The notes under the pieces are model-generated. The model had not been told where the DNA came from, made no database searches, and saw only the letters and a list, made by a program, of their open reading frames with translations. A DNA stretch of 24,002 nucleotides, taken from NCBI GenBank assembly GCA_016840465.1, contig JAEOSH010000031.1, positions 1 to 24,002 on the forward strand. Reading direction: 5' to 3'. Below, piece by piece: positions 10,022 to 23,474 of this stretch. Source of the DNA: Candidatus Baldrarchaeum yapensis. GTDB lineage: Archaea > Asgardarchaeota > Baldrarchaeia > Baldrarchaeales > Baldrarchaeaceae. The position numbers were made by a program, and so were the translations under genes. The first letter of the stretch is position 1. Each line of letters starts with the position of its first letter.

Positions 10022-10111
10022 CTCATTGATGTACTGGTAAGACTGACTGAGAAGATGCAAATTTCATAGAAGCCGTATCAAGGGTTTAAAAGATCAGGGA
10101 ATTGATAAACC

Positions 10112-10292
10112 GTTCTGACTCTCCGCCACTTTTGTTGCATTCGATGCGTGTGTAGCGGAGAGCCTTCCCGTCTCGGGGTTCATCGACGGGCCTTCGCGGG
10201 GAACGGTACTCCGCACATCCATCTGGCCCCTCGCTCCGCCCTTTCGGGCTTCCCCTCCCTCTTACCACCCATCCCACATCCCGGGCGGAGCC
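10112..10292 (-). ncRNA. Stand-alone TnpB omega-RNA-like element or non-autonomous IS remnant
   Basis: GC-rich and non-coding. Perfect 9-bp inverted repeat 10233-10241/10283-10291 and a terminal stem 10119-10126/10155-10162. Shares motifs and layout with the tnpB 3' end at 23652-23776. Confidence 0.55.
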
Positions 10293-17175: not shown

Positions 17176-17592
17176 GTGGGCGTACGCGTAAGGATTGAAA
17201 TAAAACATGGAAATGTGGTCATGGATACCGTCGCTCTAGTAAATAGTGGGTATGAGACTCCCGAACCAGAGGTGCACATCCCACTTGCGCTGGCTAGGAG
17301 GCTTGGACTCATAAGAGAGAGTCTGCGTAGTACACAATACAGGGTCGTCGGATCAGAGGTCACAACGTACGTGCTGGGGGAGGTTGAGGTAAGAATAGTT
17401 ACCGAGGACAGAACATCGCCGTGGATAAAAGCGCGAGCGGTCATGGTTCCCGGAGAGTACGAGGTACTTATAAGTGATGCGCTGATAGAGGCCTTCGAAA
17501 TAGAAGTTCTTAAACCCAAGTCGGGAATATGGAAGTTTAAGGGCGAAACCAAAACCAGAGAAAGCCCCGAACCCGAATACTGGGTGGAGTGA
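17176..17592 (+). CDS. Archaeal retropepsin-like (clan AA fold) hypothetical protein
   Basis: VALVNSGY (DTG-equivalent position is NSG) and EVLISDALIE pattern. Confidence 0.6.
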   Translation: MGVRVRIEIKHGNVVMDTVALVNSGYETPEPEVHIPLALARRLGLIRESLRSTQYRVVGSEVTTYVLGEVEVRIVTEDRTSPWIKARAVMVPGEYEVLISDALIEAFEIEVLKPKSGIWKFKGETKTRESPEPEYWVE

Positions 17593-17698: not shown

Positions 17699-19210
17699 AT
17701 GGTTCCAGACGAATTGATAGAGAAACTGCGGAAAATAGTTGGACGAGAGAGGCTCAAGACCTCCATTGAGCATAGACTGGCGTATAGCAGGGACTGGGCC
17801 CCGATGCTCGCATCCGATGCTTACATTCCGGATGTTGTCGTCAAGCCGAAGTCCACCGAGGAAGTCGCGGAAATAGTAAAGCTGGCAAATGAGTATAAAG
17901 TTCCTGTGGTCCCGATGGCTGGGCTCACCGGAATGGGCGGAGGAGCGGTTGCGGTAAAGGGCGGGATCGCAATCGACACCACAGGACTAAACAAAATCCT
18001 AGAAGTCGATACCCAGAACCTCACAGTTACTGTGCAGGCCGGGATAACGATCGCAAAACTCAACGATGAACTGGATAAGTACGGCCTCTGGTTTCCTCAC
18101 GACCCCGAAAGCAAAAGGGTTAGCACCATCGGGGCCGCAATAGCCTGTGACAACGACAGGGTATGGCGTTAAGCCATACCCCGTGAGAGCACCTTCGGCA
18201 TGAAGTACGGAAAGATGACCGATCACCTCCTAAGTTTGACCATAGTTACGGGAAGAGGCGAAATAGTGAGGCTGGGACCGAGAAAGGTGCCATTCTCATC
18301 CACCGGGTACAAGCTACATTACCTGATGGTCGGGAGCGAGGGAACCCTGGGAATAATAACAGAGGCGACCCTGAGAGTGTACCCGAAGCTCAAAAGCCGA
18401 GTAGTCCGCGGATATGTTTTCCCGTCGATAAAATCCGCCATCGACGCACTCAAGAGACTGATCCAAGCGGGAGTATGTCCGGAAGCCGCAAATATAAATT
18501 GCAAGCGGAGGCTGGCGTTCTATACGCATGCATATAAGGTCAAGTATGGAAGGGAGCCGGATATTCCAAAGTGGGCGGAGGCGGTGCTATTTATAGTGTT
18601 CGCTGGCGATGAAGAGGTCGTCAGATTCTACGATGAATACTCAGAGAGGATAATGAAGGAGTTCGGAGGGGCTAAGATAAAGGAGGAAGAAATAGTGCAG
18701 TCGTGGTGGATCTCAAAGCACACGCTGGAATTTCCGCCCGAGAGGCAGAAATGGCCGGACTCTCAAAGGAAGAAGAAATTCGGGGCGGCTGATCTCGGAA
18801 TTCCTATCGGGAGAGTAGAAGAGGCATATAAGAGGTTCCTGGAAATCGCCGAGAAACATAAACTCGAGGTTCTGGGAATGAACATTTATAACCAGAAGCC
18901 TAATACCGTGAGCGCATCCATCAGTTTTGCAGTCTTCGTGGACGACCGCAACCCGTATGAGGTCCGAAGATTCTACGAATACGTTAAAGAGATGTCAAAA
19001 ATGGCCGTTGACCTCGAGGGAACGATGAGCACGTACATTGGGGACGGCTTTCGACTGGGAGGATTTAACAAATATGAACACGGTAAAGCCTTCGACCTGA
19101 TGCGCGAGATAAAGAGGGTTTTCGATCCAAACGGCATACTGAATCCCGGAAAGAAGTTTGAATCCCTCTGGATAAAATTCGAGGATGGTGGGGGCGATGG
19201 TCTATCTTGA
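17699..19210 (+). CDS. FAD-binding oxidoreductase (GlcD/D-lactate dehydrogenase family), interrupted by a 30-nt putative intron
   Basis: Track ORFs 17690-18172 and 18200-19210 share one frame. Motifs include PDVVVKPKSTEEVAEIVKLA, VQAG, DPES, STIG, KYG, GSEGTLGIITE and FDPNGILNPGK. Removing 18158-18187 gives 493 aa from ATG 17699. Confidence 0.9.
18158..18187 (+). other. Putative bulge-helix-bulge mRNA intron (30 nt)
   Basis: AGGGTATGGCGTTAAGCCATACCCCGTGAG: 9-bp perfect stem, in-frame TAA, 3-nt bulges ACA/AGA and a central helix with 3 of 4 pairs. Confidence 0.75.
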
Positions 19211-20333
19211 AAAGTATAAGGAGGACATATACACATGTAACAGGACCAGATGTGGGTTCTGCAGGGATGGTTGCCCCGTTTACGAGGATATGCTCTTCGA
19301 GTCATACACGAGCAGGGGGAAGATGATACTCGCAAGAGCCTTCCTCGAGGGCGTCATAAAGCCGAGCGAGGAACTGATGAACGTACTTTACGCATGTACA
19401 ACTTGCGGATACTGTAAAGTGAGGTGCGCACTCGACACCGTCCGGATATTCGAAGCCTTTAGGGCCGAACTCGTCAACTTGGGCCTTAAGGATATGTATC
19501 ACGAGAGAGTCCTCCAGTTCATAAACGAGAATGGAAATCCGTACGGACGCGATAAAAAGGAACGTAGTGGGTGGGCTAACGGCATAAGATTTGACAATTC
19601 CTCCGATACTCTATTCTTCGCCGGATGCGGATACTCATACGAATTCCCGGATGCAATAAGGTGCGCGGCCCTCACGCTGATAAATGCAGGCGTCGAATTA
19701 AAATATCTAGGTGCCGAGGAGCCATGTTGCAACCACTTCTCAAAGACCACTGGGCATTGGGAAACGTTCACCGAGTACGTCAAGAAAAACTACAAAATGT
19801 TCAAATCGGAGGGTGTAAAAAGGATAATAACGAGTTGCCCCGCGTGCTTCAAGGCGTTCTCTCAAGAATACCCGGAGTTTCTGCCGGAGTTCGACATAGA
19901 GGTGCTCCATTATTCCCAGGTGCTTGTTAAACTCCTCGATGAGGGAAAGCTGAAGCCAAAGAACGAGATCAAAATGAAGGTGGCGTACCACGACCCCTGT
20001 CACCTCGGACGCCACATGAAGATCTTCGAAGAACCGCGTGAGATTCTTAACAAGATCCCCGGACTGGAAGTCATCGAGTTCGAAAGAAATCGCTACGAGT
20101 CCTACTGTTGTGGAGGCGGGGGAGGACTCTTTGCAACCAGACCCGATATCTCCATGAGAATCGCATACAGGAGAATTGCCGAGGTCGCCGATAGGGGAAT
20201 CGACGCCATAGTCACCATATGCCCCACCTGTGAGTCCATATTGAAAAGAGCGGTGGAGTATGAGGAGTTGAATATTAAGGTGCTGGATCTGGCGGAACTC
20301 GTGTACCAAAGTTGTATGAAAAAAGAGAAGTAG
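19197..20333 (+). CDS. GlcF/HdrD-like Fe-S protein with CCG domains
   Basis: CNRTRCGFCRDGCP, CTTCGYCKVRC, EPCC, SCPAC, YHDPCHLGR, CCGGGGG and ICPTC; overlaps the oxidoreductase stop. Confidence 0.9.
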   Translation: MVYLEKYKEDIYTCNRTRCGFCRDGCPVYEDMLFESYTSRGKMILARAFLEGVIKPSEELMNVLYACTTCGYCKVRCALDTVRIFEAFRAELVNLGLKDMYHERVLQFINENGNPYGRDKKERSGWANGIRFDNSSDTLFFAGCGYSYEFPDAIRCAALTLINAGVELKYLGAEEPCCNHFSKTTGHWETFTEYVKKNYKMFKSEGVKRIITSCPACFKAFSQEYPEFLPEFDIEVLHYSQVLVKLLDEGKLKPKNEIKMKVAYHDPCHLGRHMKIFEEPREILNKIPGLEVIEFERNRYESYCCGGGGGLFATRPDISMRIAYRRIAEVADRGIDAIVTICPTCESILKRAVEYEELNIKVLDLAELVYQSCMKKEK

Positions 20334-21078: not shown

Positions 21079-21687
21079 ATGGAACGACTGTACACACTCA
21101 AGGAAGCCTCGAAACTGCTTGGCGTTCATGTGAAGACGATACAAAAGTGGGATCGAGAGGGAAAAATACGGTGTGTTCGCACTCCCGGCGGTAGGCGTAG
21201 GGTTCCCGAGTCCGAGATAAGGCGAATTCTTGGAATTCAGGAGAAAAGGAAGATTGTTGGCTATGCAAGAGTTTCATCGCGAACCCAAAAAGACGACCTA
21301 GAGAGGCAAGTCGAACTCATAAGAAGCTACGCGAAAGAAAGAGGGTGGGAGATTGAGATACTCAAGGATGTGGGCTCAGGACTTAAGGAGGATAGGAGGA
21401 ACTTCCTGAAGTTACTGAGGATGGTGATGAACAGGGAGGTTTCCAAGGTCATTGTTGCGTATCCCGATAGGCTCACGAGGTTTGGGTTCAAAATTTTAGA
21501 GGAGTTTTTCAAAAGCTACGGCACGGAGATCATCGTAATTAACAGGGAAGAAAAGAGTCCACAGCAAGAACTGATCGAGGATCTGATCACAATAATTTCC
21601 CACTTTGCCGGGAAGCTTTACGGCATGCGGTCACACAAGTACAAGAAGGTGGTGGAGGGTGCAAAGCGTCTCATTGCTGACCCGTGA
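21079..21687 (+). CDS. tnpA: IS607 serine recombinase/transposase
   Basis: N-terminal MerR-like HTH ([24 protein letters not shown]...TPGGRRR), YARVSS catalytic Ser, [16 protein letters not shown] and [10 protein letters not shown]. Confidence 0.95.
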
Positions 21688-22687
21688 GGAAGTGCGGGCG
21701 TATTCCGTCCCCTTCGAAGACGAGAGGATAAAGAACTTAATTACGTGGTACAAGGTAATGTTGCAGAGGGCAATTGATGTAATTTGGGAGAACATCACTT
21801 GGAAGTACGACTTCAAGAAGTTCAGAAAGCGAAAACACGTCAAGTTTAGGGTTCCCGTTCTTCCAAAAAGCAAGGAGTTCAAGAAACGACTCAGGGACGT
21901 ACTAATGCGAGAGAACCCGTATGCCGCGCACTGGGTGGACGCAGTGATAAGAACCGCGTACAGCATAATGAATTCTTGGAGAAAGCGATACGTCAAGGGC
22001 AAGGCACGGAAAAAGAAACCAATCGTCGGTAGAAGGTTTGCAAGGTGCAAGATAACATTGATGAAGGTGGATTACGAGCGCAAAGTCATACGGATAACGC
22101 TAAGACCGAGAGAGCACATAGAGGTATGCTATGGGAATACGTGGTTCCACAAAAGAGTCGAGGGGTGGCGCGTCGGTGAGGTGGTTCTAAAGGACGACAG
22201 AATAATAATTCCGTTCAAGAGGGAGCGGGTACATGCAATAGAGCACGAGATAGCGTGGGACTGCAACGAGTTGACGATAGACGGATTTTCACCAACCATC
22301 GGGTTTGTGCGCGTGGATTTGAAGCCCCTAATAACCGAGAGGATAGTTTATCAGACGAAAAGATCTAGGATACAGGCGCTGATGTGTAAGAAGACCAAGA
22401 GAGGAAGAGAGTTGTGGCAAAAGTACCACAGGAAGGAGAGGAACGTGTGCCGACAGATAGAAAGGGCAATTGCGAGGAGCATTGTTGAGACATTTCCAAA
22501 TGCATTGCACATATTTGAGGAGTTGAACAAGGAGAAGATGATAAGGAAGAAAAAGGATGGTGAGGAAAGCAAACCGAAATTCTTGAGGAAAAGGGTGGCG
22601 AGGGTCAGTTGGGCGAACATTCGGAGGGAGGTCGAGCAGAGGGCGGTTGTTCAGAAGGTTGATCCGTATCTTACCTCAAAGACCTGC

Positions 22688-23474
22688 TCAAGATACATGG
22701 TTGGAGGTATAAGTCTATGAAGTACGTAAGAAAGTTGCCATTAGAGGAGAGGATGAAGTTGTATCATCAAGCACTAGAACTCAGAAGAAGAGGAGTTCCC
22801 ATAAAGACGATAGCCAAGACCTTAGGAATTAGTAGGAAAACTGTAGAGAGTTGGATCTATAAAGGGTGTAAACCAGATACAAGGGTATATAGTGTTAGAC
22901 TGACCTCCTCAAAGGAGTTGGCATATATATTAGGTCTCTTTCTCGGTGATGGTACGGTTACAAAGCATTCATCAAAAAAGAAGGATAAAGTAGTGGTCAT
23001 ACGGACTAAATATTCAAATCATGCAATCAAAATATCAGAAACTCTGAGGAAATTAGGTCTCAACCCCAGTATTTATCTCGATAGAAAATCAAAGTACAAT
23101 AAGAGGTGGAACGACTTATATGCAGTCAGGGTCTTCTCAAGGAGATTTGTTGAATTTATCGAATCAGTAACCGCAAGCAAAATCAGGGAAATGATAAGGG
23201 GTCATGAAATAGATTTTCTTCGTGGTTTTTATGAGGCAGAGGGTTCTCTAAGCTATAACAAGAGAATAAAGCAACTTCATATCCGTATTACTAATACTAA
23301 CTACGAATATATGGAGTTGGTAAGAGATATCCTTCAGTTAATTGGATTTAACGTTAATGTAAGGAGACGTAGAGGTACAAAGAAACCAGCTTATGAAATA
23401 GAATTGACAGGGAATAATATTTGTCGAAGATTTCTTAAAATAGTTAATCCGCTAATCAAGAATGAAATCAAGAT
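22688..23474 (+). mobile_element. AT-rich homing-endonuclease cassette bounded by TCAAGAT direct repeats
   Basis: Repeats at 22688-22694 and 23468-23474, 780 bp apart. Sampled lines of the cassette are about 30-43% GC; sampled tnpB lines are about 40-58%. Confidence 0.85.

Follow-up and report, generated by a model that had tools for sequence, protein, structure and literature searches.

A candidate bulge-helix-bulge mini-intron in the gene for a GlcD-like oxidase of Candidatus Baldrarchaeum yapensis

The oxidase gene and its neighborhood

The DNA analyzed here is a stretch of 24,002 nucleotides, hereafter called the window, that corresponds to positions 1 to 24,002 of the forward strand of contig JAEOSH010000031.1 of Candidatus Baldrarchaeum yapensis. 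A gene for a GlcD-like FAD-linked oxidase occupies positions 17699-19210 of the plus strand. The assignment to this family is based upon Pfam matches to FAD_binding_4 (PF01565, E=8e-36) and FAD-oxidase_C (PF02913, E=3e-22), which suggest a putative enzyme of the glycolate/D-lactate-dehydrogenase type. The best protein matches came mainly from Helarchaeota and Lokiarchaeota MAGs (as judged by source names), and the identity to full-length orthologues of 485-497 amino acids was 58-66%. Two paralogous GlcD-like genes were found in the same genome by protein search, on contigs C52 (27075-28460) and C64 (13164-14525).

In the automatic annotation the oxidase is called as two ORFs of 157 and 336 amino acids, the second of which begins at the ATG at 18200. 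It had been claimed in the original prediction that the gene is broken only by a 30-nt insert carrying an in-frame TAA, and this description proved accurate. The single frame break is the TAA at 18170-18172, downstream of which the identical frame resumes and runs to the stop at 19210. With the insert set aside, the gene consists of 493 codons without any further defect. The two parts of the coding sequence and the gene that overlaps its 3' end are as follows.

17699..18157, plus strand: exon 1 of the oxidase, codons 1-153, ending in ...CDND; FAD_binding_4 covers residues 44-149 and stops at the insert, at profile position 105 of 139
18188..19210, plus strand: exon 2 of the oxidase, STFGMKYGK... 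to the stop, containing the remainder of FAD_binding_4 and, on residues 232-485, PF02913; placed by orthologue alignment
19185..20333, plus strand: intact downstream gene overlapping the oxidase 3' end, for a CCG-domain / 4Fe-4S protein (GlcF/HdrD-like; Pfam CCG, Fer4_8, Fer4_17)

The CCG-domain / 4Fe-4S protein is likely the partner subunit of the oxidase. Immediately 5' of the oxidase gene lies an ORF of 138 amino acids without a Pfam match (window 17176-17592, plus strand). About 2 kb 3' of the oxidase operon, a MerR/HTH-resolvase (serine recombinase) gene at window positions 21079-21687 is followed by an MJ0013-family gene at 21605-22720, both on the plus strand and with Pfam labels taken from the twin assembly. 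This pair may be a small mobile element.

Structure, boundaries and distribution of the insert

The insert and the elements of the proposed bulge-helix-bulge (BHB) motif around it, all on the plus strand, are listed below.

18143..18151, plus strand: 5' strand of the weak outer exon-exon helix h, partner 18189-18199 in the constrained fold; one contiguous pair in the strict register
18152..18155, plus strand: 5' strand of the central helix H, AACG, pairing with 18182-18185 through three pairs and an A18152.G18185 mismatch
18156..18158, plus strand: 5' bulge ACA, predicted cut 18157/18158 (cut rule of PMC2738675)
18158..18187, plus strand: the insert, a proposed BHB intron of 30 nt in phase 0, starting with A, ending with AG and containing the in-frame TAA 18170-72; absent from aligned orthologues, with BHB geometry
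18159..18181, plus strand: intron helix h', a perfect 9-bp stem (18159-18167 with 18173-18181) closed by the loop GTTAA; stem alone -17.6 kcal/mol
18182..18185, plus strand: 3' strand of the central helix H, CGTG, inside the intron
18186..18188, plus strand: 3' bulge AGA, predicted cut 18187/18188 (cut rule of PMC2738675)

The layout from 5' to 3' is thus exon AACG (helix H), the bulge AC/A, the 9-bp helix h', intron CGTG (helix H), the bulge AG/A and the exon. Each bulge lies 3' of its central-helix strand, which is the correct handedness for an hBHBh' motif, and the stem is separated from the 5' end of the insert by 1 nt and from its 3' end by 6 nt, in agreement with the 1 + h' + 4 + 2 layout that a BHB intron requires. 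The stem, the bulges and the central helix that had been described from the sequence were all present, with the right geometry. The BHB motif and the exon-exon helix claimed with them were found in their elements, but in a relaxed rather than a textbook form. In the strict register of the outer helix, C18151-G18189 is the sole contiguous pair. In the constrained fold the outer helix consists of U18148-G18189, G18147-C18190 and U18146-A18191, followed after a small internal loop by GCC/GGC pairing between 18143-45 and 18197-99. The BHB-constrained fold (-24.6 kcal/mol) and the unconstrained minimum free energy structure (-24.9 kcal/mol) are isoenergetic. The motif is a relaxed BHB, given the A.G mismatch adjoining the 3' bulge and the weakness of the exon helix, and corresponds to the HBh'-type relaxed motif. 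As modeled, with the exon helix reduced to one contiguous pair, the 3' site comes closer to a small internal loop.

The boundaries of the insert can be defined independently from orthologues, with an ambiguity of 2 nt that arises because the AG at 18158-59 recurs at 18188-89. For the cbf5 intron, cuts were predicted between bulge residues 2 and 3 (Yokobori 2009, PMC2738675). The endonuclease cut rule invoked in the original prediction agrees with this published one, and when applied here it excises exactly 18158-18187. The canonical cuts after the second bulge base therefore coincide with the orthologue-defined insert. Excision of 18158-18187 gives ...AAIACDND/STFGMKYGK... and a protein of 493 amino acids, inside the orthologue range of 485-497. 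If it is not excised, the insert reads as the ten codons RVWR-stop-AIPRE.

Orthologues were predicted to lack the insert, and this was the case in all of those aligned: 14 of 14 read ...CDND/STFG... across a gap-free junction, with 58-72% identity over the aligned segment. The CDND/STFG block is nearly invariant, and in the 14-orthologue alignment the T and F of STFG are invariant. About 28 orthologues in Asgard genomes have no insert and no internal stop. A protein search of 301 Asgard genomes gave no orthologue with an insert at the oxidase site; in a check with tblastn, the in-frame stops flagged in that search were traced to the normal C-terminal stop codons, which the aligner had read past, and to one nonsense codon in a paralogue. 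In that paralogue, L064 (G087:C380:11-1572) of another Asgard genome, an in-frame TAA replaces a residue at query position 431 with no insertion; this is not an intron but a plain nonsense codon or an error of sequencing. Metagenome contigs were also scanned with two degenerate patterns for an insert of 12-42 nt at CDND/TFG, and none was detected. A search for further N-terminal fragments of the oxidase returned the identical one only. A DNA search of 41 relatives gave matches in 5 other genomes. All copies of the insert are identical and occur in one species only, so that the motif shows neither covariation nor cross-lineage conservation, which reflects missing data and not a contradiction. 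From this distribution, the oxidase intron looks like a recent, species-specific gain.

The insert is not confined to a single assembly. Its sequence is identical in a second assembly, GCA_054386075.1, in which the gene is again called as two ORFs, and it is unchanged in Logan contigs built from four more metagenome runs. These runs belong to four studies that sampled hydrothermal vents and sediments, and the word depth of their contigs reached 77x and 44x. The contigs of these four runs, in which rare variants are dropped, contained no indel variant and no joint across the insert, and those of a more divergent strain do not cover the insert site. The N-terminal product of 157 amino acids, including its RVWR tail, was called on six contigs. 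The insert is thus fixed in the population, insofar as it is unchanged in two assemblies and in the contigs of the four further runs that cover it. No second copy of the hairpin exists in the 2.27-Mb draft genome (a MAG of 100 contigs), and an Rfam search of the window gave no match; on these two grounds, an origin as a repeat or mobile element was rejected.

Strain variants of the oxidase gene that occur in other runs were examined for signs of selection. Among 38 variants, 33 were synonymous and five non-synonymous, as compared with 23% synonymous under neutrality. Three insert-bearing haplotypes are separated by six sites, two upstream and four downstream of the insert, and all six are synonymous (p of about 1e-3, even for transitions only), although this test is small and the variants could predate the insertion if haplotypes recombined. 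The pattern argues for purifying selection and speaks against a pseudogene, and it suggests that both halves are translated in frame. It fits splicing and a two-piece enzyme alike and cannot separate them.

Similar putative introns and the splicing enzymes of the genome

The original prediction proposed that further split genes of this genome may hide introns of the same kind. Four such genes were verified, with the coordinates re-derived from the genome sequence in each case.

contig C67 54628-54657, minus strand: infB, 30 nt, excision restores REAGGITQHIG
contig C67 57987-58017, minus strand: rpoN, 31 nt, excision restores MIIPVRCFTCGK
contig C86 12830-12858, plus strand: UPF0147 gene, 29 nt, excision joins Pfam positions 2-62 and 62-81
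contig C66 13809-13837, minus strand: radical-SAM gene, 29 nt, excision restores CNFTCPWC (CxxxCxxC motif)

These four sister introns are 29-31 nt long with a stem of 8-10 bp and a loop of 2-6 nt. They have a complete central helix (4/4) and 2-6 outer pairs, begin with A and end in A-A or A-G. The oxidase insert resembles them in size, stem, stem placement and its A...AG ends, and its excision likewise restores a conserved motif. It differs in having three of four central pairs and about one outer pair, whereas the sisters have four of four and 2-6. The oxidase motif is the weakest of the five in the genome. Beyond their consensus ends the introns share no sequence, and there is therefore no sign of a common mobile ancestor. 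Both aIF5B, the product of infB, and RpoN are indispensable. Since infB is essential and RpoN cannot be dispensed with, the organism must remove such introns from its mRNA, and the same fate is likely for the oxidase insert. Judged from sequence, the genome most likely contains at least five putative BHB introns in protein genes, the oxidase included.

The degree to which chance could produce such motifs was also evaluated. Within the genome, 2,579 hairpins comparable to that of the oxidase insert were found, of which 5.2% have flanks in BHB register and 0.47% match the class consensus as well. The coincidence of predicted cuts with orthologue boundaries adds a further factor of approximately 1/8, a rough estimate rather than a computed value. 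The first genome scans for a BHB motif combined with ORF fusion yielded mostly chance hits, no more numerous than in a control with mirror geometry, and relaxed BHB motifs are as frequent genome-wide in that control as in the true geometry. Real and control motifs were told apart only by the strict motif or the class-consensus filter: strict motifs passing the class filter (H 4/4, h >= 2) numbered six in the true geometry and zero in the mirror control. A genome scan for BHB-split genes was therefore informative when filtered in this way, but not in its relaxed versions. Structure alone is not significant genome-wide and proves nothing. What makes the case for a BHB reading of the oxidase insert, as far as sequence comparison can indicate, is that the predicted cuts fall on insert boundaries that were defined independently.

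A strict BHB-shaped element of 27 nt (H 4/4, a 9-bp stem and a 2-bp outer helix) was also observed on the minus strand of contig C75, at 10097-10123, in a long open frame that it leaves uninterrupted. This element could be a stop-free in-frame intron, or due to chance.

The genome encodes two paralogues of the tRNA-splicing endonuclease EndA. Both have an N- and a C-terminal domain, and they share 34% identity. Among solved tRNA-splicing endonuclease chains, one paralogue is closest to 3p1z_B and 3ajv_B, which we take to be catalytic subunits of crenarchaeal heterotetramers. The other paralogue has no His at the position aligned to the catalytic His. The pair fits an endonuclease of (alpha-beta)2 type, with subunit assembly and specificity being predictions. 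Hetero-oligomeric EndA cuts relaxed motifs (PMC5829648, PMC2738675), and the (alpha-beta)2 and epsilon2 types cleave non-canonical motifs (PMC5829648). An intact gene for the ligase RtcB is present. The cbf5 gene (TruB_N) of this genome is uninterrupted (contig C67 87090-87431, minus strand). ARAGORN identified 24 tRNA genes and called introns in 11 of the 24, several at non-canonical positions. The true set of tRNA genes is probably larger and more interrupted than these calls.

A proposed splicing route, competing explanations and related systems

We consider it probable that the oxidase insert is a BHB mini-intron removed from the mRNA by EndA and RtcB, with splicing predicted from DNA. This reading, which is also the core of the original prediction, is the best supported of those weighed. 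In the pre-mRNA the intron would fold as the 9-bp hairpin h', and its 3' tail CGUG would pair with the exon AACG to form the central helix, exposing the two 3-nt bulges AC/A and AG/A. A two-paralogue EndA of alpha-beta type would cut after the second base of each bulge, and RtcB would ligate GAC to AGC, giving ...CDND-STFG... and an enzyme of 493 amino acids. RNA left unspliced would yield the truncated product of 157 amino acids. Cleavage and ligation on the oxidase mRNA are the two steps that we infer. Inefficient or conditional splicing at the relaxed 3' site, which might act as an expression gate, is a weaker possibility, and the gating role put forward in the original prediction is unsupported.

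Other explanations of the interrupted gene were weighed against this one. The oxidase might be a recent pseudogene, killed by a 30-bp palindromic insertion through a replication or template-switch error or as the footprint of a small mobile hairpin, with coincidental BHB flanks and with decay not yet begun. Such an origin would suit the confinement of the insert to one species, the relaxed form of its BHB (relaxed shapes are common by chance) and the presence of two GlcD-like paralogues that could take over the function. It is nevertheless unlikely. The 493 codons have acquired no second defect, the overlapping partner gene is intact, and the insert is fixed and unchanged in both assemblies and in the contigs of all four further runs. 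The six of six synonymous variants among insert-bearing haplotypes, and 33 of 38 overall, are not what a dead gene would be expected to show, and the uniqueness of the hairpin in the genome leaves no repeat family from which it could have come. The insert also agrees in size, in the asymmetric placement of its stem and in its A...AG ends with four sister introns in genes that cannot be dead. A two-piece enzyme, in which the ORFs of 157 and 336 amino acids (the latter from ATG 18200) are translated apart and the insert supplies a stop and a restart context, was judged quite improbable. The break falls inside the FAD_binding_4 domain, and the conserved STFG, with its invariant T and F, would belong to neither polypeptide even though its codons stay in frame; a two-piece enzyme would also offer no explanation other than coincidence for the BHB register and the sister introns. 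Against these points stand the position of ATG 18200, 10 codons past the TAA, and the presence of Met at 18200-18202 where 14 of 14 orthologues have Ile, Val or Leu. There is also a weak GTGAG 13-17 nt upstream of this ATG, and purifying selection on both halves is equally compatible with separate translation. The Met codon at 18200-18202 could reflect a neutral substitution or serve to restart translation.

Two further explanations carry very little weight. Ribosomal recoding would take the form either of TAA readthrough, adding 10 residues, or of translational bypass of the hairpin. In bacteriophage T4, the gene 60 bypass element is a stable hairpin with a stop codon, and the oxidase hairpin, which is stable and contains a stop, recalls it. 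The resemblance goes no further: the take-off codon would be GAC (18155-57) and the landing codon GAG (18185-87), which do not match, and the stop is not next to the take-off codon. Translational bypass was rejected because these two codons differ. Readthrough would place ten added residues in an invariant block that is uninterrupted in every orthologue, and we know of no mechanism for it here. Recoding in either form is highly improbable. The genome is a draft MAG of 100 contigs, in which an assembly or sequencing artefact is conceivable; however, an independent assembly carries the identical insert, as do the contigs of four runs from four studies, at 77x and 44x and with no indels. Contig evidence, as far as it reaches, excludes an assembly artefact, and the likelihood of an artefact of either kind is negligible.

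The closest known system to the proposed BHB mini-intron is that of cbf5. The cbf5 pre-mRNA of Crenarchaeota reportedly contains a BHB intron, as Watanabe in 2002 and Yoshinari in 2006 are said to have described. The cbf5 intron of Aeropyrum, Sulfolobus and the Desulfurococcales and the oxidase insert are both short, lie within coding sequence in a highly conserved motif, have BHB or relaxed-BHB form with the same predicted cut position, and occur in hosts with a hetero-oligomeric EndA, which for the present archaeon is a prediction. They differ in that cbf5 is an RNA-modification gene of Crenarchaeota, whereas the oxidase is a metabolic FAD enzyme of an Asgard-type archaeon. The cbf5 intron is moreover conserved across orders and its splicing was demonstrated by cDNA and in vitro cleavage, while the oxidase intron is species-specific and its splicing is predicted from DNA. 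By analogy, the oxidase intron probably works like that of cbf5, and it would extend this kind of intron to a further gene family and a further phylum. In a full-text literature search, BHB introns of protein genes were found only in crenarchaeal cbf5; no report placed them in any other protein gene or in an Asgard archaeon.

Archaeal tRNA and rRNA BHB introns, reportedly treated by Marck and Grosjean in 2003, share their recognition motif with the oxidase insert, and EndA and RtcB are presumed to process both; the tRNA genes of this genome are intron-rich as well. The oxidase differs in that the host is an mRNA, so that the cut must keep the reading frame. Intron-rich tRNA genes have been described for Asgard archaea in a preprint (bioRxiv 10.64898/2026.10.13.758758) that deals with tRNA genes only; mRNA is unmentioned in it, and where 'protein-coding' occurs, once, neighbouring genes are meant. 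A comparison can also be drawn with HAC1/XBP1 splicing. In that regulated stress switch IRE1 cuts at small stem-loops and a tRNA ligase or RtcB seals the ends. As proposed for the oxidase, a short mRNA intron is excised independently of the spliceosome by a protein endonuclease and a tRNA-type ligase. The endonuclease IRE1 and the motif are different, and regulation is a feature of HAC1/XBP1 splicing.

The oxidase case alone adds one member to the set of putative introns in this genome, with the weakest motif of that set and with splicing predicted from DNA; two of the four sister introns sit in core information-processing genes. For the genome as a whole, we regard the arguments as evenly balanced for a broader reading, that this archaeon may routinely depend on its tRNA-splicing enzymes for several mRNAs and may still be gaining mini-introns, the oxidase intron being a very young one in a non-essential metabolic gene. 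If this is correct, automatic annotation would split or discard such genes, as with the oxidase and its ORFs of 157 and 336 amino acids. Endonuclease-type introns would still be spreading into coding genes, in a process of gain that is ongoing and datable, and the archaea most closely related to eukaryotes would regularly rely on the tRNA machinery to splice mRNA during gene expression.
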